A DNA stretch of 40,660 nucleotides from a virus (taxonomy: Duplodnaviria; Caudoviricetes), in the IMG/VR virus record IMGVR_UViG_3300048851_000036, positions 1-40,660 of that record. One strand, written 5' to 3'. Made by a program: the position numbers and the translations under genes. Shown here piece after piece: positions 139 through 34,572 of this stretch. Position 1 is the first letter of the stretch. The number at the start of each line of letters is the position of its first letter. A model generated the notes under the pieces. It did no database searches, was not told where the DNA came from, and was given only the letters and a program-made list of their open reading frames with translations.

Positions 139-897
139 TCACCCCGCACATTCCTGTGTCCAGCCGGTCGTCCCGTCAGTGAACATCGTCGTCCCCTTCT
201 GATAGACCGGATCATCCATGCAGTAGGCGATGGCCTTCTCTGGCAACGCGGTTGGCGGCCCCGTTGGTGCGCCCGTATATCCGACGGGAGGGTCAGCTTC
301 AACCGTCTCCTCAACCGTCTCTTCAACCGTGGGCTCGGGTTCAAAGGTTGGAGTGGGGGTCGGTGTCGTCGTAGTTGGCTCGACAACAGGCGCAGGAGGT
401 GTTCGCTGCGGCAAGACACTGAAGTCGCCAAACCAGTTGGTCGACCCAAACAGGGTGAAAGTGCCCGACTTGAGTGCCGCGGCAGGCATCGCGAACCCCC
501 AAGACACATCCGCGGTCGAGCCTCCACGGAATACGCCTTCGACGCCGGGATCTAAGTCCTCGAGCACGGTGTAATCAACCGAGTCGTGACCTTCGGGTAC
601 GAATGTTGCCATCGGCTCCCAGTTGGCGACGTCGGCTCCAGTGTTCGCCGCTTGCCCGTAAAGCACGGTGTAAACGACCGGCGTACTCGCATCAGCGTCG
701 GTGTAACTACCCCATCCGGTGAGCTTGAACTTCACCCCATCGTCAAACGTGACCTCATCGGTGGGGGCGTGAATTGCCGTGCCGTCCTCGGTCGATGGGG
801 CTGCGGAAGATGCGGTCTCGTTGTCGCCTCCCTCGCTCGAGCAACCCGCCAGGATCAAGGCGGTGGCACCAACCACTGCGATGAGTGTGCGTTTCAT
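139..897 (-). CDS. Lipoprotein with Pro/Thr/Glu-rich linker and small Cys-flanked C-terminal domain
   Basis: Signal peptide MKRTLIAVVGATALILAG-C with lipobox LAGC; PT-rich linker; C-terminal YC...EC pair. Confidence 0.85.
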   Translation of the reverse strand: MKRTLIAVVGATALILAGCSSEGGDNETASSAAPSTEDGTAIHAPTDEVTFDDGVKFKLTGWGSYTDADASTPVVYTVLYGQAANTGADVANWEPMATFVPEGHDSVDYTVLEDLDPGVEGVFRGGSTADVSWGFAMPAAALKSGTFTLFGSTNWFGDFSVLPQRTPPAPVVEPTTTTPTPTPTFEPEPTVEETVEETVEADPPVGYTGAPTGPPTALPEKAIAYCMDDPVYQKGTTMFTDGTTGWTQECAG

Positions 898-1133
898 GTC
901 AGGTCTCTCCTCTGTGTACGGGCTGTCACCCGCTCGGATCGTATGCGCCGCAAACGATTTACCAATTGTGGATAGGACTCTAGCGCCTCGGGATCGTCGA
1001 TGATCAGGTTCAGCCGCCGGTAATACCTGATGGCAGACACCTCAAAGCGACGCACAATCTCCGTCTCTTTGTTGCCACGCTGGTACCACCACAAGGATTC
1101 GAACTCCAAGTACTCGCGGTCACGGTCGTTCAT
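894..1133 (-). CDS. DUF3263-family protein
   Basis: LEFESLWW...KETEIVRRFEVSAIRYYRRLNLIIDDPEAL...P.LVNRLRR pattern; ATGA overlaps with both neighbours. Confidence 0.8.
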   Translation of the reverse strand: MNDRDREYLEFESLWWYQRGNKETEIVRRFEVSAIRYYRRLNLIIDDPEALESYPQLVNRLRRIRSERVTARTQRRDLT

Positions 1134-1582
1134 GGCGCCCAACTCCATTCGTCACCAAGCCGGTGCTCGAGCTCGGCCACCTCGATCGGCCCCAGTCCGC
1201 GCATCCGAAACTCCAGCGTCGGAACGTCCACCCACAGTTCGTCGGCCAGTTGGACTGGAGTGGGGTGTCGATGCCACCGGAAGGCGTCAACCAGTGCGTC
1301 CAACGGAATAAGACGCCGTGACGCTATGTCGTTCACGATCTCCTCCTCTCGGCGCGCGGCAGCGTCCCCAGCGGGTAATGGCCCGCGCTCAATGTGAACG
1401 ATCTCGTGGGTCAACGTGCACCGCCGCTCAGCTTGCGTCAGCGTCGAGCACAACCAGATCCGGCGGCCTCGCACCAGCCCCATCCGAGATGCGTGCAGCT
1501 CGTGCCTACACGTCACCTCCAGGTCGGGATATTGATCGCGGAGATGCCGCCACGGATGCCATCGAGGGATCTGAGTCGTCAT
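1130..1582 (-). CDS. ImmA/IrrE-family metallopeptidase
   Basis: ERRCTLTHEIVH (HExxH), downstream EE and LADELWV; directly after the repressor. Confidence 0.85.
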   Translation of the reverse strand: MTTQIPRWHPWRHLRDQYPDLEVTCRHELHASRMGLVRGRRIWLCSTLTQAERRCTLTHEIVHIERGPLPAGDAAARREEEIVNDIASRRLIPLDALVDAFRWHRHPTPVQLADELWVDVPTLEFRMRGLGPIEVAELEHRLGDEWSWAP

Positions 1583-1642
1583 GTCCCGGACCGTAGGGCC
1601 AGGGTCTGACAAAACCTGTGCTGACCTCGAATTACACGGATG

Positions 1643-2449
1643 TCATTCTTCCGTGGGCTGGCCCTTCTTGTAGCCGGGTGGCGTCTCACGGGCCGCCACG
1701 TCCTCGTCGTCGAGCGCGGGCGGTAGATCGTCAAGGTCTTCGCCTTGATCTGTCGGATTCAAGGGATGGACATTGTCGTGATGCTGGCGGTCGCCAGCGT
1801 CGGCCTCCTTGTGCGACGGGGCGCCCGATGCTCCCGGCGTCTTGGCCGGCGAATCAGTGGCGGGTGCGGTTCGTTCTGCATTGGGGTCAAACTCCTTCGT
1901 TAGATCAGCTAGGTCTTGCCGTATGAAACTGATGGCAGCCACGGGGCCACTCAGCGCGTTGATCAAGTCCAGTCGAAGCGTCTCCGTTTCGCTCTGTATG
2001 GCAACGCTTTGGGCCACGTCGATTGAAGACTGAAGAACGTTGAGCATTTTGCGGATACGGACGAGCGGCGATGTCTCTGGATCTAACTCGCCGTAGGCGG
2101 TGATGACGTCGTAAAGCGAGTCCTGGCGGGTGCTCCATCCCCGCTCATCTAGAAGCTTCCTAACGTCGCCGCCACGGACAGGGTCATCGACGACCGATTC
2201 TCCCTCCTTCGGAACAGGATCTCCGCCGGCAAGCGTCCGAGCCGCGCTCCCTTTAGTCCATCCCAGGCTGTGATCCAGCTTGCTAAGTGTTGCGATCGTC
2301 ATCCCAACTGGTGCACCTTCCAAGATCTTTCGGAGCGTCGTATCGCTGGGGCCACCTCGCTCACGGATAGCCGCCTGCGTTAGCCCGAGTTCGGCCATGC
2401 GTTTCCGGACGTGCCGAGAGAAGTACTCGGAGTTGAGCAATGTCGTCAT
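1643..2449 (-). CDS. Immunity repressor (XRE-type HTH); start re-called at 2449
   Basis: RMAELGLTQAAIRERGGPSDTTLRKI...TLSKLDHSLGWTKGS; divergent from the cro-like gene; the longer ORF call would overlap cro. Confidence 0.8.
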   Translation of the reverse strand: MTTLLNSEYFSRHVRKRMAELGLTQAAIRERGGPSDTTLRKILEGAPVGMTIATLSKLDHSLGWTKGSAARTLAGGDPVPKEGESVVDDPVRGGDVRKLLDERGWSTRQDSLYDVITAYGELDPETSPLVRIRKMLNVLQSSIDVAQSVAIQSETETLRLDLINALSGPVAAISFIRQDLADLTKEFDPNAERTAPATDSPAKTPGASGAPSHKEADAGDRQHHDNVHPLNPTDQGEDLDDLPPALDDEDVAARETPPGYKKGQPTEE

Positions 2450-2631
2450 GCCGAAAGTGTCGCAGATTTTTTCGGCAAACCTCGGGATGGGTTGGCAAAC
2501 GACAAGCAGGTAATTCGTTTCGCCTTGGCATCCCGAACACTCATCGACGCTGATGGAGGCGGTTTGCCACTTTCGGATCGGTTTCGTTAATTCGGTTTGC
2601 CTTCGGGTTTCTATGGTGTACCTTCGGACAC
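2450..2631. promoter_or_regulatory. Divergent immunity switch region with repeated GGCAAAC/GTTTGCC operator-like boxes
   Basis: GGCAAAC at 2474 and 2494, GTTTGCC at 2562 and 2595; TTGCCT (2597) ... TACCTT (2619) ending 7 nt before the cro ATG (leaderless-type). Confidence 0.6.
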
Positions 2632-2922
2632 ATGCCAACGGAAACCCAATCGCGGCGGTACTCGCGCCAACGAAATCCGAAGGTGCCGCCTCACGTGTCG
2701 ATCGCGATAGTGCGGCGCCTTTCGGGGCTGACACTTGATGAGGTTTGCGACCGGATAGAGGAGATCACCGGCGACCGACCCACCAAGGGCGCGTTGTCTG
2801 CAATTGAGAACGGTCACCGGGGCGCATCACTGCAGCTGATCACTGCGCTTGAGCAGGCGTACCAGCTGCCCGCAGGCTCCATCTCGACCACGTATCAACC
2901 ACGTCAAGCGGCGGTGGCGTGA
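2632..2922 (+). CDS. Cro-like HTH protein
   Basis: VRRLSGLTLDEVCDRI...TKGALSAIENGHRGAS XRE HTH; first gene of the rightward operon. Confidence 0.85.
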   Translation: MPTETQSRRYSRQRNPKVPPHVSIAIVRRLSGLTLDEVCDRIEEITGDRPTKGALSAIENGHRGASLQLITALEQAYQLPAGSISTTYQPRQAAVA

Positions 2923-3635
2923 TGCCGGCCCACCACGACCTTGTCCAGATCCCAGTCCCCGGGACCGACCGCGAGATCGTCGCGACGCAGGTTGATGGCC
3001 GCGCTCTGGTCTCGCTGCGCCACGCTTGTGAGGCGATTGGTCTAGCCACCGACTCGCAGCGCCGCAAGCTGAGCAGCAGGTCATGGGCAACCGTCACCCA
3101 GCAGGTGTCGGTTGCAGAAGATGGCAAGGCGCGGGAGATGACAATGATCGACCGACGCACATTCACTATGTGGCTGGGCGGCATAGACGAGAACCGGGTT
3201 AAGCCTGAGGCTCGGCCAGTCCTCATCGCGTTTCAGGCCGAGGCTGCCGACGCGCTCGACTCCTACTTCTCGACAGGAATCGCCGTCGCCACTCCGGCGA
3301 ACTTGTCTCAGTTCGACATCCTCCGCGCAGCTATCGACCGCATTGAGGAATCAGAGCGAATCGCTACTGAGGCAAGGACTATCGCGGAGCGTGCCGAAGC
3401 ACGCCTCGACGGCATTGAGGGTCACCACGACTGGTTCTCGGCTCTTGGCTACGCGAAGCTGAACGGCCTCCCCACGTACGAGAAGTTCCTCCGCAAGCTT
3501 GGTAGCTGCGCATCGATGATCGCGCGTACCCACGAGATCCAGCCCGACAAGGCGCAGCACGCCCATTACGGCACGGTCAACAGCTACCCCGTGTGGATCT
3601 GGAAACTCGCGGCTGACGGAATGGGTGCCCAATGA
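2919..3635 (+). CDS. Phage antirepressor (P22 AR N-terminal type)
   Basis: LVSLRHACEAIGL..DSQRRKL...DGKAREM..I...F.MWL..I..NRVKPE motifs. Confidence 0.85.
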   Translation: MMPAHHDLVQIPVPGTDREIVATQVDGRALVSLRHACEAIGLATDSQRRKLSSRSWATVTQQVSVAEDGKAREMTMIDRRTFTMWLGGIDENRVKPEARPVLIAFQAEAADALDSYFSTGIAVATPANLSQFDILRAAIDRIEESERIATEARTIAERAEARLDGIEGHHDWFSALGYAKLNGLPTYEKFLRKLGSCASMIARTHEIQPDKAQHAHYGTVNSYPVWIWKLAADGMGAQ

Positions 3636-3640
3636 CTCTC

Positions 3641-3864
3641 GGCAGGCCAGGTGCGGAGCGGCATGGCACGGCGCGTTATGGCGGTTCACGGTCCGGCAGG
3701 CGGGGCATGGAACGGTTTGGCAAGTCTGGTCTGGGTTTGGCTAGGCACGGCAGGGCAGGCAAGTCAAGGCTCGGAGCGGCTAGGCACGGCTCGGCAAGGC
3801 GTGGCAGGCATGGCGTGGCGACGACCGGCTGGGCGTGGTTTCGCGCGACATGGCGCGGCCGGCA
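3641..3864 (+). repeat. GGY-NN pentamer array 1 (putative guide ncRNA): four blocks of 10, 11, 9 and 10 units separated by GGCA
   Basis: Parses in 5-nt register, e.g. GGCA|GGCCA GGTGC GGAGC GGCAT GGCAC GGCGC GTTAT GGCGG TTCAC GGTCC|GGCA|GGCGG...; GGCA spacers at 3641, 3695, 3754, 3803 and 3861. Confidence 0.9.
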
Positions 3865-3872
3865 AAAGACAA

Positions 3873-3895
3873 CCCCGGTGCTGTGAACACCGGGG
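3873..3895. terminator. 8-bp hairpin at the 3' end of array 1 (RNA boundary element or minus-strand terminator)
   Basis: CCCCGGTG-ctgtgaa-CACCGGGG, preceded by AAAAGACAA. Confidence 0.55.
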
Positions 3896-3940: not shown

Positions 3941-4576
3941 ATGACTGAACGTATCGAAATCACCAAGATCGCGTCCGAGACCATGATCGTCCCGATCAAG
4001 GGCACGGCGCCCCTGATCGTGCACAACTTCTCTGAGAAGTCGAAGCGCCAGATGCTAGACGCGCAGCAGGGGAAGAAGAAGGTGAAGGAAGTTCGTGATC
4101 CGCAGGCCGAGTACGAGGCCGCGTTCTATCGAATTGCGAACGAGGACAACGGTGATGAGTACGGGTTCCCGGTGACGGCGTTCAAGGCGGCGACGATCGG
4201 TGCGGCCAGGTTCTACGACAAGTCAGTCACCATGACCTCGCTCCGGCAGTTCATGTTCATGCACGGACTCTTGACGAAGGCTGATCCGCAGCAGTTGGTG
4301 AAGATCATCGGCGAGCCGTCGTTCCGTGAAGATGTTGTGCGGCTTGGCGGTCCGTCGCGGTCGGCTGACCTACGGTACCGGCCGGAGTTCCGGGACTGGT
4401 CCGCCGAACTGAAGGTCACCTACGTGACCAGCTCCCTCTCGAGGGATTCGGTTCTGTCTTTGATTGACGCAGGCGGTCTCGGTATCGGCGTCGGAGAGTG
4501 GCGTCCCGAGAAGCGCGGCGAGTTCGGGACGTACGAGATTGACCAGACGAAAGACATCGAAATTCTCCCGAGGTGA
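3941..4576 (+). CDS. Stand-alone RAMP/Cas7-like protein (Vipr-like)
   Basis: RBS ACAGGAG; N-terminal IVPIKGTAPLIVH, GFPVTAFKAA and C-terminal Gly-rich loop GLGIGVGEWRPEKRGEFGTYEI resemble RAMP signature elements; flanked by the GGY-NN arrays. Confidence 0.75.
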   Translation: MTERIEITKIASETMIVPIKGTAPLIVHNFSEKSKRQMLDAQQGKKKVKEVRDPQAEYEAAFYRIANEDNGDEYGFPVTAFKAATIGAARFYDKSVTMTSLRQFMFMHGLLTKADPQQLVKIIGEPSFREDVVRLGGPSRSADLRYRPEFRDWSAELKVTYVTSSLSRDSVLSLIDAGGLGIGVGEWRPEKRGEFGTYEIDQTKDIEILPR

Positions 4577-4630: not shown

Positions 4631-4826
4631 GGCAGGCTAGGTGCGGCAGGTCCCGATTTGGCAGGTCACGGTTTGGCATGGCAGGGCAGGCATGGCACAT
4701 CGCGTCATGGCTAGGTTCGGCACGGCGTGTCTCGGCAAGGCAGGCATCGGCAGGGCAGGCAAGGCGCGGATCGGTTTGGCATGGCCCGTCTCGGCAAGGC
4801 CCGGCAGTCGCGGCACGGCACGGAAT
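4631..4826 (+). repeat. GGY-NN pentamer array 2 (putative guide ncRNA): blocks of 10, 10, 2 (irregular), 9 and 4 units separated by GGCA
   Basis: GGCA spacers at 4631, 4685, 4739, 4754 and 4803; starts CTCGGCAGGCTAGGTGCGG, nearly identical to the array 1 start CTCGGCAGGCCAGGTGCGG. Confidence 0.9.
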
Positions 4827-4852: not shown

Positions 4853-5272
4853 ATGAGTGACCTCAGAAGCACACTCACAAGCATTTACCAGGACCGGGGC
4901 GAACTCACGCCACAGACAGTCGTGGATGTAGCTCGACCTGCTGACCACCCACTGCACAACAGGTTCGAGTGGAACAACGACGTGGCTGGCGAAGCCTACC
5001 GCCGCGTCCAAGCGCAAGAACTGATTCGGTCGGTGAAGATCACCTACGCCGAGACCCCGCAGGGTGACAGGCGGTCTGTCCGCGCCTTCTCATCGCTTCA
5101 CGAATCGGTCGATCCGCAACGTGAAGGCTATGCGCCGACCGAAGAGCTCATCGAAGATCCTCTCACTCTCAAGATCCTGCTGCGCAACTGCCAGCGCGAC
5201 ATCGAGACGATAAAGCGGAAGTACGGGCACCTCAAGGAGTTCGGCGACCTCCTTCGCAAGGCGGCATCATGA
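4853..5272 (+). CDS. Hypothetical protein, probable accessory gene of the array/RAMP locus
   Basis: Good RBS (GAAGGA); LTPQTVVDVARPADHPLHNRFEWNNDVAGEAYRRVQAQELIRSV; directly follows array 2. Confidence 0.75.
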   Translation: MSDLRSTLTSIYQDRGELTPQTVVDVARPADHPLHNRFEWNNDVAGEAYRRVQAQELIRSVKITYAETPQGDRRSVRAFSSLHESVDPQREGYAPTEELIEDPLTLKILLRNCQRDIETIKRKYGHLKEFGDLLRKAAS

Positions 5273-11950: not shown

Positions 11951-12144
11951 ACGCCCCCTTCGAAGCGGTCATCGTCACCCGCATCCCCCTCGACGTCACC
12001 AGCCGTGAAGTAGCCGACACCCTCGCCCACGACATCGCCGACGACATGGCTCGATCCGCCGGCCAATACGGACTGTACGAACCGCAAATCGAACGGTGCG
12101 ACGTTGAATGCACTGCGGCGTGGGCGGCGGGTGAGGTGCTGTGA
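11947..12144 (+). CDS. Hypothetical protein
   Basis: GGAGG RBS; coupled at both ends. Confidence 0.55.
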   Translation: MNAPFEAVIVTRIPLDVTSREVADTLAHDIADDMARSAGQYGLYEPQIERCDVECTAAWAAGEVL

Positions 12145-12863
12145 AGCCGCGACTTCTCGACCTCTTCTGTTGCGCGGGTGGGGCTGCGATGGGCTACCAC
12201 CGTGCTGGATTCGAAGTCGTTGGTGTGGACATCAGCCCGCAGCCCAACTATCCGTTCGAGTTCATCCACGCGGACGCCACCGCGCTTCGCCAGGACCGGG
12301 TATATGGCTGTTGGCACGAGGACTCGAACCTCACGTCGCTCCCTGGTCGTAACCCTCGCTGCCTCGGCAAGTTTGACGCCATCCACATGTCGCCGCCCTG
12401 CCAGGCATCCTGCGCGCTCACGAAGGGTACGAACAAGGGGCGCGAGCACCCGCAGCTCATCCCGACGATGCGGGAATGGGCTGCCAGCCTGGGCATCCCG
12501 ACCGTCATCGAGAACGTTCAAGGCTCAGACCTCCGCCGCGACCTCACCCTGTGCGGGGAGATGTTCGGGCTCGGTGTGATCCGTCACCGCTACTTCGAGG
12601 TCAGTAACTTCGAGGTCACCCAGCCTGCACACATCAAGCACCGCGGTCGAGTGGCCGGCTGGCGTCACGGCGAGTACTTCGACGGCCCCTACGTAGCCGT
12701 GTACGGCGACGGGGGTGGCAAAGGCACTGTCGCGCAATGGCAGCAAGCAATGGGTATCGACTGGACTAACGACCGCAAGGAACTCGCAGAGGCCATCCCT
12801 CCGCGGTATGCGGAGTTCATTGGCCGCCAAATCATGGCCCACATCCAGGCGGTGGCCGCATGA
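12141..12863 (+). CDS. DNA cytosine-C5 methyltransferase (short, orphan)
   Basis: Motif I LDLFCCAGG, motif IV SPPCQ, motif VI IENV, motif VIII RHRYF, C-terminal EAIPP.Y..FIG. Confidence 0.85.
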   Translation: MKPRLLDLFCCAGGAAMGYHRAGFEVVGVDISPQPNYPFEFIHADATALRQDRVYGCWHEDSNLTSLPGRNPRCLGKFDAIHMSPPCQASCALTKGTNKGREHPQLIPTMREWAASLGIPTVIENVQGSDLRRDLTLCGEMFGLGVIRHRYFEVSNFEVTQPAHIKHRGRVAGWRHGEYFDGPYVAVYGDGGGKGTVAQWQQAMGIDWTNDRKELAEAIPPRYAEFIGRQIMAHIQAVAA

Positions 12864-30381: not shown

Positions 30382-33300
30382 GTGGCAACCTATTCCGCCG
30401 GCGAAGCCTCAGTCAGAATAAGCCCGTCCCTCCAAGGATTCGCAGCAGAACTCCGGCGCGAACTGGAACGGATGGACGCCACTTTCGCCGTTGATGTCGA
30501 GGGCGATCTCACTCGCCTCCGTCAGCAATTGGCTGCGTTCCGCGAAACCGTCACCGTCGATGTGGACGGCGACCTCACGATGCTGCGTGCACGTCTCGCG
30601 GCGATGCAGAATTATCAGATCAACGTCGGCGTCAACGCGGACACGGCCCTCGCTGAAGCCCAGCTGGCATTCCTGGCTCGGGATCGCACCGCCAACATCA
30701 ACGTCAATGTGAATGGCGGCGGCCTGGGGTCGCTCGGTTCCAGCATGGGACGTATCGGGCAGCAGGCCGGCGGGGTCAGCAGCGCTCTCACGTCGATGGC
30801 GGGTGCGACTGCAGGGATCGTCGGTGTCGCTTCTGCCATCGCGTCCATCGGCGGTGCTGCAGGTGCAGCCCTGGGTGCTGTCGGCGCGTTGGCGATCGGC
30901 CTGTCCTCTGTGGGTGTTGCTGGTGCCGGTGGTATCAGCACCCTGCTCGTGGGGCTGAACGGTGTGGGTGATGCGTTCTCCGCAATCGGGGATGCATCGT
31001 CGGGTGCCGGTGGGGCAGCGACGGATTCGGCCCGTGCGGTGACGTCGGCAGAGAATGCTTTGACGTCCGCCGTGAAGGCTGAGCAGCGCGCCCAGGAGGA
31101 CGTTGAGCGCGCCCGCAAAGACGCTCTCGAGCAGTTGGAGGACTACAACCTCGAACTCCGATCCGCTGCTTTGTCGGAGCAGGACGCGGTCCTGTCGCTG
31201 GCGGAGGCGAAACGTGATCTCGCCAAGGGTGACTTCGATGACCCACTGGATCGTCAGCGTGCGGTATTGCGTGTCGCCGAGGCTGAGCAACGGTTGGCTG
31301 AGGTCCGCGAATCCAACGGCGACCTCGAGGAAAAGGCCGCGGACGCCCGACAGAAGGGCGTGGATCAGGCCGACGAGGTTGTTTCCGCGAACGATCGGCT
31401 GGCTGAATCGCAGCAGCGGGTAACCGATGCGCAGCAGGCGTTGGCGGATGCCCAAGCTCCCAGTGGCGGCGGCGGAATCGACAAGGTCGCCGAGGCAATG
31501 GCGAAGCTGTCGCCGGAGGCCCAAGGGTTCGTGCTGGCGATGACCGCATTGAAACCTGCGTGGGATGAGTTGCAAAACTCGGTGCAGGACAAGATGTTCG
31601 AGGGCCTTGGGGTTGTTTTCACTGACCTCGCGACCACGGTTTTGCCGACACTGCAGCAGGGCATGGGTGCGGTCGCGGGATCGATCAATGGAGCCGCACG
31701 CGAGTTCGCCGCGTTCTGGTCGTCTGCCGCCGCACAAGAGGGTTTGCAGGCGGTGTTCGCCGGGACCGCGGACTTCATCACAGCCCTACAGCCTGGACTT
31801 GCCGCACTGACCCAGGGCTTCCTCTCAATGGCTATTGCGATGGCCCCGGTGATGGATCAGATCGGTGCCGGGTTTGGGCAGATGTTCGCGCAGATCGGCG
31901 CCGCTCTCAGTGAAATTGACACCTCGTTCTTCTCCACGTTTGCCGAGTTCCTGGGCCCCGTCGGGTCGTTGCTTGGTGATGTTGTCCGGACCCTGACGGA
32001 ACTAGGAACGCAGGTCATGCCTGCTCTCGGACCGTTATTGGTGGCGTTCGGCGATGCCCTGGTGACAATGGCCGGTCCGATCGGCGAACTGGGCGCCGCG
32101 TTCGCAACAGCCCTGACCCCAGTCCTACCTGTGGTCGCGGACCTGATTAATGCTCTCGCTGACGGGCTGGCCCCCCTGCTGCCGATCTTGTCGACGGCTT
32201 TGCAGACTGTTGGACAGGCGCTCATCACGGCACTGCCGATCGCCGCACCTGTCATCGAGCAGTTGGTGGGATTGTTCGGGAACCTCCTCGCTGCGATTGC
32301 ACCCCTACTGCCGCCGCTGATCGAGTTGACGGCCGCGATCCTGACGCCGCTGATAGGGATTGTGCAGCAGGTAGTGGCTGCCCTGGCCCCGTTCATCACA
32401 CAACTAATCTCGCAGCTTCAGCCCGTAATCACCGCTCTCACACCCGTGTTGGCTGAGGTGGGCCGGTTGATCGGTGACGCGATGGTTGAGGCGTTGAACA
32501 CGATGCTGCCGATCATGGGGCCGTTCGTTCAAGCTTTGCTGGACTTGATGATGGCGATGCTGCCGATGCTTCCGGCGTGGACAAAGCTTGCCGCAGAGTT
32601 GTTGCCGCTCACCATGAATGGGATGCGGGTCATGATGCCCGTCCTGACGTTGCTGATTCAAGCGTTCACGGAGTGGGCGCAGCTGGTGATGCCGCTGGTT
32701 GTTGGCGCGCTTAATGCAGTGTCTACGGTCATCGGTGTTCTGGGCGGTGTGGTGAACGGCTTGCTCACCGTGTGGAACACCGTCATGACCGGCATCAAGG
32801 ATGGCGTCACCAGCGCCGGCAGTTGGGTGACCACCAAGTTCGACGAGCTGGTCGGGTTCGTGACCGGTCTACCGGAGCGGATCAAGAACGCCGCCACAGG
32901 AATGTGGGACGGCCTAAAAGATGCGTTCAAGAATGCCATCAACTGGATCATTCAGAAGTGGAATGATCTCGAACTGAAATTGCCAGAGATAAAGGTGCCC
33001 AACCCATTTGGCGATGACGTCAAAGTAGGTGGGCAGTCTCTGTCAACGCCCAATATCGCGTTGCTCGCTACAGGTGGTGCCGTCACCGGGCCGGGTGGTC
33101 CGCGTGATGACCAGGTTTTGGTCGCAGCTTCCAATGGCGAGTACGTCATCAACGCGAAGTCCACTGCTGCATACCGGCCCCTCATCGAGGCGATCAATGC
33201 CGGCACTATCCCGAAGTTTGCTGACGGTGGAGAGATCAGCGCCTTCCCTCGCAACGAAGGACTTGAAGGTGCCCCGTACGTGTGGGGCGGTGTCCATTGG

Positions 33301-34572
33301 GGTGACTGCTCCGGGGCGATGAGTGCGATCGCTCGCTTTGCTGTCGGCTTGGATCCGTGGGGCGGAAGGTTCTCTACCGCCACCCAGGGCGCTGATCTGG
33401 CTGCGATGGGGTTCCAGTCCGGGCTGGGCGGCTCAGGGGATCTTCGATTCGGTTGGTACAACGGCGGACCTGGAGGCGGTCACACTTCCGGCACCCTCCC
33501 TGACGGCACAAACGTTGAGATGGGTGGCGCTCGCGGTGACGGTCAGGTTGGTGGCGGCGCAGCTGGTGCCGATGACCCGATGCACACCGATCACGCGCAC
33601 CTGTCTGTGGCCGGCGCAGCACCGTGGGTCATTCCCGGCGGCGACTATCAGTCACAGACTCCGGGTGCTGACACGGTCCCTGGGTGGGGTGAGGACGGAT
33701 CGACAGGCTCGGGTAGTTCTTCGAGCTCGAGCGGCTCGACCGGTTCATCGTCCCCATCGTCGTGGTCCGATGTTGCCGGCATAGGCGCAGCGGCATTCGC
33801 CAAGGGCATGGTGTCGGACCTACTTGGAGTGTTCGGCATTCCTGATTCGATGCCCCCTGCGGTGCAGGCGTACAACCAGTTCCAGGAGAACAAAACCCCG
33901 ATCACGGATCCGGGAACAACGGGCAGCGCCAACGACAACATCGACTTCGCGCCCAACCCTTCGCCAGCCCCCGCAGCGCCTCCTCCTCCTGCCGCCCCTG
34001 TCGACAATTCCCCACAGGGCGCGGTCAAGCGGGCGTTCCAGCCCATGGGGTGGGACACCGGAGCGCAGTGGGATGCAACCGATTTCATCGTCACGAAAGA
34101 GTCTGGGTGGAATCCGCTAGCTCGCAACCCTTCATCTGGGGCGTTCGGATTGTTCCAGTTCCTCGGCTCCACCAAGGATGCCTATTTGCCTGACGAGAAT
34201 CCTGACCCATTCATTCAAGGGCAGGCCGGCGGGCGATACATCGGCGACCGGTATGAGACACCCGTGCTGGCGCGCGAGGCGTGGGAAGCGCAGGGCTGGT
34301 ATGCGGACGGCGGCTACGTGTCCGGTGCGGGTGGTCCTCGTTCGGATTCCATTCCCGCCTACCTGAGCAACGGAGAGTATGTGGTCAATTCGATGGCGAC
34401 CCGCCAGAACATGCCGATCTTGGAGGCGATCAACTCCGGGCAGCAGGTGTCGTCTGGCGTCACCCACAACCACTACAACAATGTCTCCACCGCTCGTGTT
34501 GAGGATGCGTTCTGGGAGTTGCGTCAAAAGCAGGACCGCGACGCTGCGATGACCGTGACGGGGTACCGCTGA
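30382..34572 (+). CDS. Tape measure protein with C-terminal peptidoglycan-hydrolase motifs
   Basis: 1396 aa, Ala/Leu-rich; PYVWGG..DCSG...GHT and KESGWNP.A.NPSSGA.GLFQ motifs. Confidence 0.95.
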   Translation: MATYSAGEASVRISPSLQGFAAELRRELERMDATFAVDVEGDLTRLRQQLAAFRETVTVDVDGDLTMLRARLAAMQNYQINVGVNADTALAEAQLAFLARDRTANINVNVNGGGLGSLGSSMGRIGQQAGGVSSALTSMAGATAGIVGVASAIASIGGAAGAALGAVGALAIGLSSVGVAGAGGISTLLVGLNGVGDAFSAIGDASSGAGGAATDSARAVTSAENALTSAVKAEQRAQEDVERARKDALEQLEDYNLELRSAALSEQDAVLSLAEAKRDLAKGDFDDPLDRQRAVLRVAEAEQRLAEVRESNGDLEEKAADARQKGVDQADEVVSANDRLAESQQRVTDAQQALADAQAPSGGGGIDKVAEAMAKLSPEAQGFVLAMTALKPAWDELQNSVQDKMFEGLGVVFTDLATTVLPTLQQGMGAVAGSINGAAREFAAFWSSAAAQEGLQAVFAGTADFITALQPGLAALTQGFLSMAIAMAPVMDQIGAGFGQMFAQIGAALSEIDTSFFSTFAEFLGPVGSLLGDVVRTLTELGTQVMPALGPLLVAFGDALVTMAGPIGELGAAFATALTPVLPVVADLINALADGLAPLLPILSTALQTVGQALITALPIAAPVIEQLVGLFGNLLAAIAPLLPPLIELTAAILTPLIGIVQQVVAALAPFITQLISQLQPVITALTPVLAEVGRLIGDAMVEALNTMLPIMGPFVQALLDLMMAMLPMLPAWTKLAAELLPLTMNGMRVMMPVLTLLIQAFTEWAQLVMPLVVGALNAVSTVIGVLGGVVNGLLTVWNTVMTGIKDGVTSAGSWVTTKFDELVGFVTGLPERIKNAATGMWDGLKDAFKNAINWIIQKWNDLELKLPEIKVPNPFGDDVKVGGQSLSTPNIALLATGGAVTGPGGPRDDQVLVAASNGEYVINAKSTAAYRPLIEAINAGTIPKFADGGEISAFPRNEGLEGAPYVWGGVHWGDCSGAMSAIARFAVGLDPWGGRFSTATQGADLAAMGFQSGLGGSGDLRFGWYNGGPGGGHTSGTLPDGTNVEMGGARGDGQVGGGAAGADDPMHTDHAHLSVAGAAPWVIPGGDYQSQTPGADTVPGWGEDGSTGSGSSSSSSGSTGSSSPSSWSDVAGIGAAAFAKGMVSDLLGVFGIPDSMPPAVQAYNQFQENKTPITDPGTTGSANDNIDFAPNPSPAPAAPPPPAAPVDNSPQGAVKRAFQPMGWDTGAQWDATDFIVTKESGWNPLARNPSSGAFGLFQFLGSTKDAYLPDENPDPFIQGQAGGRYIGDRYETPVLAREAWEAQGWYADGGYVSGAGGPRSDSIPAYLSNGEYVVNSMATRQNMPILEAINSGQQVSSGVTHNHYNNVSTARVEDAFWELRQKQDRDAAMTVTGYR

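Follow-up and report, generated by a model that had tools for sequence, protein, structure and literature searches.

The question raised by this locus is what a small RAMP-like protein does in a phage genome. A preliminary description, made from the sequence alone, had presented it as a solo RAMP protein with no CRISPR context. We found that it is the effector of an already published system, VIPR, a CRISPR-related RNA-guided gene silencer reported in 2026 (10.64898/2026.04.26.720920), and that some of the guides beside it decode to integrase-gene targets; both points had been missed.

A temperate actinobacterial phage carries vipr between two guide arrays

The window, by which we mean the whole stretch of DNA analyzed, is a single virus record of 40,660 bases. 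It contains structural and lysis genes (terminase, portal, capsid, tape-measure, lysin, and holin), and its terminase is ~71% identical to Gordonia phage terminases. The features of the locus are as follows.

894..3635, no strand assigned: prophage control region with an ImmA/IrrE peptidase, a repressor-like ORF, a Cro-like HTH, and a P22_AR antirepressor, directly upstream of the VIPR operon
3641..3864, plus strand: upstream staggered vrRNA array of GGY/NN pentamers, four guides with 4-nt GGCA units between them
3873..3895, plus strand: G+C-rich hairpin after the upstream array (z -1.65, not significant alone)
3941..4576, plus strand: vipr, encoding a 211-aa single-RRM RAMP (Vipr protein), supported by the ORF, homologues, fold, and a profile match
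4631..4821, plus strand: second array, likewise staggered, located between vipr and vap, with guides 4635-4684, 4689-4738, and 4758-4802 and two short remnants
4853..5272, plus strand: candidate vap accessory gene, 139 aa, with a predicted winged-helix-like N-terminal domain and C-terminal helices

The VIPR operon belongs to the early rightward gene run that follows the control region. Because vipr lies just behind the ImmA/IrrE, repressor, Cro, and antirepressor genes, we conclude that the window is a temperate actinobacterial phage. The phage's own integrase gene was not found within the 40.7-kb contig. At positions 3-30, 26-28 bases are 100% identical to sites in many bacterial genomes; this tract, which we take to resemble a reversed tRNA 3' end, probably represents the attachment core, located at the end of the contig; ARAGORN detected no whole tRNA. 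The ORF adjoining this end (139-897, minus strand) encodes a predicted lipoprotein-like product with a Pro/Thr-rich tail and no Pfam family, in a place that we assume to be typical for superinfection-exclusion genes. A further ORF, 12141-12863, is cytosine DNA methyltransferase-like.

The absence of CRISPR context was borne out as far as it was tested: the window holds no CRISPR-like repeat family and no Rfam match, and a PADLOC scan of 25 window proteins matched no Cas model. The CRISPR array and cas operon of a class 1 system are therefore lacking within the 40.7-kb contig, and the locus is minimal, consisting of vipr and vap without a CRISPR array or cas genes. The RAMP assignment itself also stood, both by fold and by homology (see below). 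The word solo did not, as arrays flank the gene and the partner gene accompanies it in 24/24 homologous loci, a set that includes some near-duplicates.

Vipr has a Cas7-group RAMP fold and is homologous to the SUSP1 and SUSP2 proteins

The vipr ORF runs from an ATG at 3941 to a TGA ending at 4576 and has an AGGAG ribosome site in front. Among 3553 candidates, 3368 homologues were retained at E<=0.001, and the best 120 of these share 75-88% identity with Vipr, self excluded. Almost all are unnamed or "hypothetical"; the named sources are Rhodococcus, Nocardia, and Microbacterium. No family was found for Vipr in Pfam, NCBIfam, or PADLOC, and its sole match in PHROGs was phrog_4652, of unknown function.

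All four RAMP motifs that had been quoted for the protein are present, namely, IVPIKGTAPLIVH at residues 16-28, GFPVTAFKAA at 75-84, the thumb at 129-150, and the G-loop at 181-196, and many of their residues are invariant across 66 homologues. An AlphaFold2 model (mean pLDDT 80.7) was closest to Csm3/Cmr/Cas7-group RAMPs in structure comparison (Z 10.8, rmsd 3.0, 145 aligned), and Foldseek returned Cas7-group RAMPs at E 3e-5. The predicted structure is thus that of a RAMP, and the proposal of a minimal Cas7-like RAMP outside CRISPR agrees with both this fold and the absence of CRISPR elements. Its further suggestion of a possibly ancestral-type backbone is in keeping with the discoverers of VIPR, who term the lineage ancestral (10.64898/2026.04.26.720920).

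A profile built from the 66 homologues gave one significant match in the PDB, 36pp_D, "SUSP1 Vipr protein" (E 3.7e-6), while hhalign placed Vipr with the SUSP2 homologue at a probability of 96 (E 3.9e-9) and 23% identity. In the SUSP1 structural report, the GGY contacts are H17, R138, D177, W178, and R179 (10.64898/2026.04.26.720927). Vipr H28, R147, E186, W187, and R188 align with these residues in an alignment made via the SUSP2 protein; SUSP1 K33, E71, and M72 showed no conservation in the Vipr alignment. Vipr is a single-RRM RAMP with thumb and G-loop, is homologous to known Vipr proteins, and carries the GGY-reading residues. Together with the arrays described below, this places the locus in the published VIPR family.

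The arrays consist of seven GGY/NN guides separated by GGCA units

In-phase GGY pairs occur at 19 per 200 nt, as compared to 3-5 in 30 Markov simulations. Partitioned at the four-base GGCA units, the two arrays comprise seven guides, each 9-11 units long, plus two remnants, and the guides have the form expected of VIPR members, adjacent GGY/NN tandem repeats with 9-16 units per guide. We consider it likely that the GGCA units mark the guide boundaries. Staggered vrRNA arrays, in which abutting guides are offset by one base, are described in the Results and the fig. S18 legend of the VIPR report (10.64898/2026.04.26.720920). Here, the same one-base offset arises where a 4-nt unit interrupts the series of 5-nt units, and the locus is therefore probably of the staggered-array kind.

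Because ~3 in 10 array units deviate from GGY, some guides may be decayed. The hairpin at 3873-3895 is a possible 3' protecting stem; the guides themselves showed no special fold, and no sigma-70 promoter was found.

The guides were decoded with the published one-base-skip rule, and the sole control with an alternative skip used two bases on guide 1. We also considered whether each unit's third base might encode the target base that is skipped, and discarded this notion because agreement was near chance (1-7 of 9-11). Inside the window, the best guide match reached only 14-15 of 18-22 bases.

Guides 1, 3, and 4 match three groups of integrase genes

The four guides of the upstream array read as follows.

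3645..3694, plus strand: guide 1, 10 units, antisense to GVPIAVIAAW beside the LGH motif of tyrosine integrases
3699..3753, plus strand: guide 2, 11 units, codon-phased and antisense to a chromosomal amino-acid ABC permease gene (LVYNQNFKVMP), with 21 of 22 bases matching
3758..3802, plus strand: guide 3, 9 units, antisense to TLDVYA[DE]LF, which lies in the catalytic C-terminal region of a second group of integrases
3807..3861, plus strand: guide 4, 10-11 units, 20-21 of 22 bases, matching a third integrase group (RAMAK[AT]HGPTM)

Before any search, guides 1 and 3, read in antisense, already looked to us like integrase motifs. Guide 1 gave seven exact 20-base matches in IMG/VR viral contigs, all of them in PF00589 integrases (five distinct at 90% identity). 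The guide is complementary to the coding strand, and its skips coincide with codon wobble positions; the two-base-skip control yielded no match. Related cellular genomes contained 48 guide 1 sites in 44 of 251 genomes, eight of them exact, as compared to 11 sites for the reversed control. Eight of the 48 were fetched and comprised seven Pfam integrases and one 97-aa piece with the same motif.

For guide 3, which reads 18 bases, 17 exact viral matches were found. Ten are integrases (six distinct), and the other seven lie in unrelated genes, six being copies of a low-GC small gene. Guide 4 had no exact match in viral contigs, and a genome search with its 10 units returned two matches, the same number as the control. 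Both genome matches are nevertheless integrases with the same motif, and adding the 11th unit, which was done after both were known, extended them to 20 and 21 of 22 bases.

The integrase groups matched by guides 1, 3, and 4 are only 21-33% identical to each other, and for all three guides the one-base skip falls on codon wobble in genes of other mobile elements. Because the skipped base is the wobble base, each guide in effect recognizes a conserved amino-acid motif, which makes the guides detectors of such motifs over whole gene families.

Vipr is predicted to silence integrases of rival elements

The RAMP fold, the homology to the SUSP1 and SUSP2 Vipr proteins, the arrays, the partner gene, and the guide-to-gene matches are all observed or computed here. 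They argue that vipr encodes the Vipr of a phage VIPR system, which likely coats GGY/NN guide RNAs from both arrays and is predicted to silence the integrases of rival prophages and satellites; we assign this reading a probability of about 0.88. By analogy with SUSP1, a Vipr filament is expected to form on GGY-periodic RNA, with one protomer binding each 5-nt unit and burying its GGY. The NN pairs would then recognize two of every three bases in double-stranded DNA, and the bound filament would block transcription, aided by a DNA-binding Vap. The competition preprint shows that SUSP1 immobilizes a satellite whose recombinase it targets at the first two codon positions (10.64898/2026.10.15.759431). 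Applied to guides 1, 3, and 4, this logic predicts a broad silencing of rival integrases. Resident elements would be unable to excise or reintegrate and thus likely could not parasitize or outcompete the phage.

The operon immediately follows the repressor, Cro, and antirepressor genes, and the contig lacks the phage's own integrase, which therefore falls outside the comparison. Both facts would suit a system that regulates its own lysogeny by silencing the phage's own integrase gene. We regard this as improbable, because target groups sharing only 21-33% identity leave room for at most one self-directed integrase guide, and no self-targets were reported for the P. fulva clade or for types III and V (10.64898/2026.04.26.720920). 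The preliminary description had offered a different role, an anti-CRISPR decoy or crRNA sponge, and crRNA binding by a phage protein of Cas7-like fold is conceivable in principle. That role found no support, because Vipr has guides of its own with codon-phased DNA targets. Moreover, a GGY/NN array adjoins the vipr homologue in 23 of the 24 loci, and the GGY-reading residues are shared with SUSP1 Vipr, making this the least probable of the readings considered. Silencing of rival integrases would account for guides 1, 3, and 4; guide 2 pointed elsewhere.

Guide 2 matches an amino-acid ABC permease gene

At <=3 mismatches, guide 2 matched 18 of 251 genomes and its reversed control none. All but one of the 18 matches lie at one common site, 13 of them with a single mismatch. 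Among 10 fetched loci, nine held the permease, matched antisense and with the skip on wobble as in guides 1, 3, and 4. The permease gene, from clusters named from Tsukamurella and Gordonia, is followed by ATPase and binding-protein genes, and no integrase, phage, or mobile-element family was present in the 35 neighboring ORFs scanned in three genomes. In 12 loci with more distant homologues of the permease, only 9-18 of 22 bases match the guide. A codon-aware model put the chance of a site with <=1 mismatch in the 251-genome set at 2.5e-4, taking codons as independent and with seven guides tried.

These results raise the possibility that the same VIPR machine also silences a host gene, guide 2 repressing the operon of permease, ATPase, and binding protein, with effects such as the loss of a route by which other phages enter through the membrane, or a change in nutrient uptake. 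Such a role would be compatible with integrase silencing. Several findings weigh against it, beyond the two provisos of the chance model. The 17 matches at the common site are orthologues and thus count as one event. The same single mismatch recurs, and the 251 genomes, 86 Gordonia-type genomes, viral contigs, and metagenomes yielded no exact match. With the mismatched position relaxed, viral contigs still gave none and metagenomes gave two matches, one of which lies in this permease whereas the other has no ORF. The host of the phage is unproven: the site is present in 15/21 genomes of the Tsukamurella-type genus and only 3/86 of the Gordonia-type genus, and no close prophage was found in either genome set. 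Last, an accidental guide of host origin would give an identical picture. We therefore hold only tentatively, and as the less likely outcome, that this temperate actinophage directs VIPR against three rival integrase families and its own host's amino-acid ABC transporter operon alike.

If guide 2 truly represses a host transporter, the scope of VIPR would widen from mobile-element warfare to host control, and VIPR would give phages a programmable means of rewiring host physiology or shutting membrane entry to competitors. A host-transporter silencing role was not found in the accessible portions of the VIPR literature searched, and the available text of the competition preprint does not mention "transporter," "staggered," or "actinomyc" (10.64898/2026.10.15.759431).

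Guides of the second array

The three full guides of the second array, out of seven in total, gave no convincing target in the scans run. Guide 4635-4684 matched none of the 251 cellular genomes at <=2 mismatches, and guide 4689-4738 had no exact match in viral contigs. A fatty-acid desaturase considered for the latter was rejected; it was matched in 2/251 genomes at 18/20 bases, on the sense strand. In a set of 21 genomes, guide 4689-4738 matched one, at 3 mismatches.

Guide 4758-4802 matched 6/251 genomes at <=1 mismatch, two of them in tape-measure genes, with a chance expectation of about 0.7, and gave seven mixed viral matches with one position relaxed. This weakly suggests tape-measure genes as its target. 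The phage's own tape-measure gene (30382-34572) encodes, near 32900, WDGLKDAF, which is like the motif decoded from this guide and matches it at 14 of 18 bases, possibly reflecting self-avoidance.

Relation to known systems

The VIPR system, its code, and recombinase targeting by SUSP1 are already known. The VIPR type II system of Escherichia phage SUSP1 resembles the present locus in its single-RRM RAMP with thumb and G-loop (10.64898/2026.04.26.720920; PDB 36pp, 10.64898/2026.04.26.720927) and in its targeting of recombinase genes (10.64898/2026.10.15.759431). Both systems also have GGY/NN guides of 9-11 units with a one-base skip on wobble, a small DNA-binding-type partner gene, and a phage location. 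In contrast to SUSP1, where each guide has a ~40-nt structured tail, guides here abut via 4-nt GGCA units. The conserved structured 3' tail expected of type II is missing, the internal guides being only 4 nt apart, unlike in the SUSP2 locus. The partner protein gave no sequence alignment to the SUSP2 partner Vap1. Its model reached only Z 5.0-5.6 against winged-helix domains, and Foldseek returned nothing for it at E<=0.001. Furthermore, the present carrier is an actinobacterial temperate phage whose guides match three integrase groups and, in one case, a host-type transporter gene.

Class 1 Cas7-group RAMPs (Csm3, Cmr4, and type VII Cas7) share the RRM core, thumb, and terminal G-loop and are the best structural matches, at 6-16% identity. 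They use contiguous spacers, whereas the code here is gapped in 5-nt units and the window has no CRISPR array or cas gene. The locus adds an actinobacterial staggered-array example with named targets, to which possible host-gene silencing would bring one new angle.

Homologous loci repeat the arrangement and target other conserved motifs

In the 24 homologous loci, 174 of the 193 four-base units were GGCA, as counted by a parse biased toward this sequence, and 118 of 164 internal array segments had 9-13 units. The sole locus without an array at the threshold used (L012) has both genes.

A recurrent guide occurs in 6/24 loci (L001, L002, L041, L042, L044, and L046) from different actinobacterial sources. 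Its antisense decoding, A[HQ][DE][LI]GH, corresponds to the HExxH motif (HELGH) of ImmA/IrrE peptidases. One version of it had eight sites in 6/121 genomes, as compared to one control site, and all eight lie in PF06114 genes, seven of them HTH-fused. Thus, the clade repeatedly targets conserved motifs of genes typical for mobile elements.

Cultured phages carry close homologues as well, at 66-72% identity in Gordonia phages and 46% in Mycobacterium smegmatis phages, which opens the staggered type to testing in phages already available. Those annotated as "hypothetical" include genes of the Gordonia phages Pipp, UmaThurman, ODay, and Ecliptus and of 27 Mycobacterium phage records.

Several individual loci showed features of their own. 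The annotation of Pipp places a hypothetical CDS (gene 43) across the guide array. Guides in the arrays of L003 and L047 decode to ATA[HQ][DE]LR[HQ]T and APTGTG[KN]TVL, which we take to resemble the integrase HxxR motif and a Walker A motif, respectively. In L046, a Nocardia prophage region, very long arrays of ~500 and 1065 nt surround vipr, and 27 guides of at least seven units were parsed from them.
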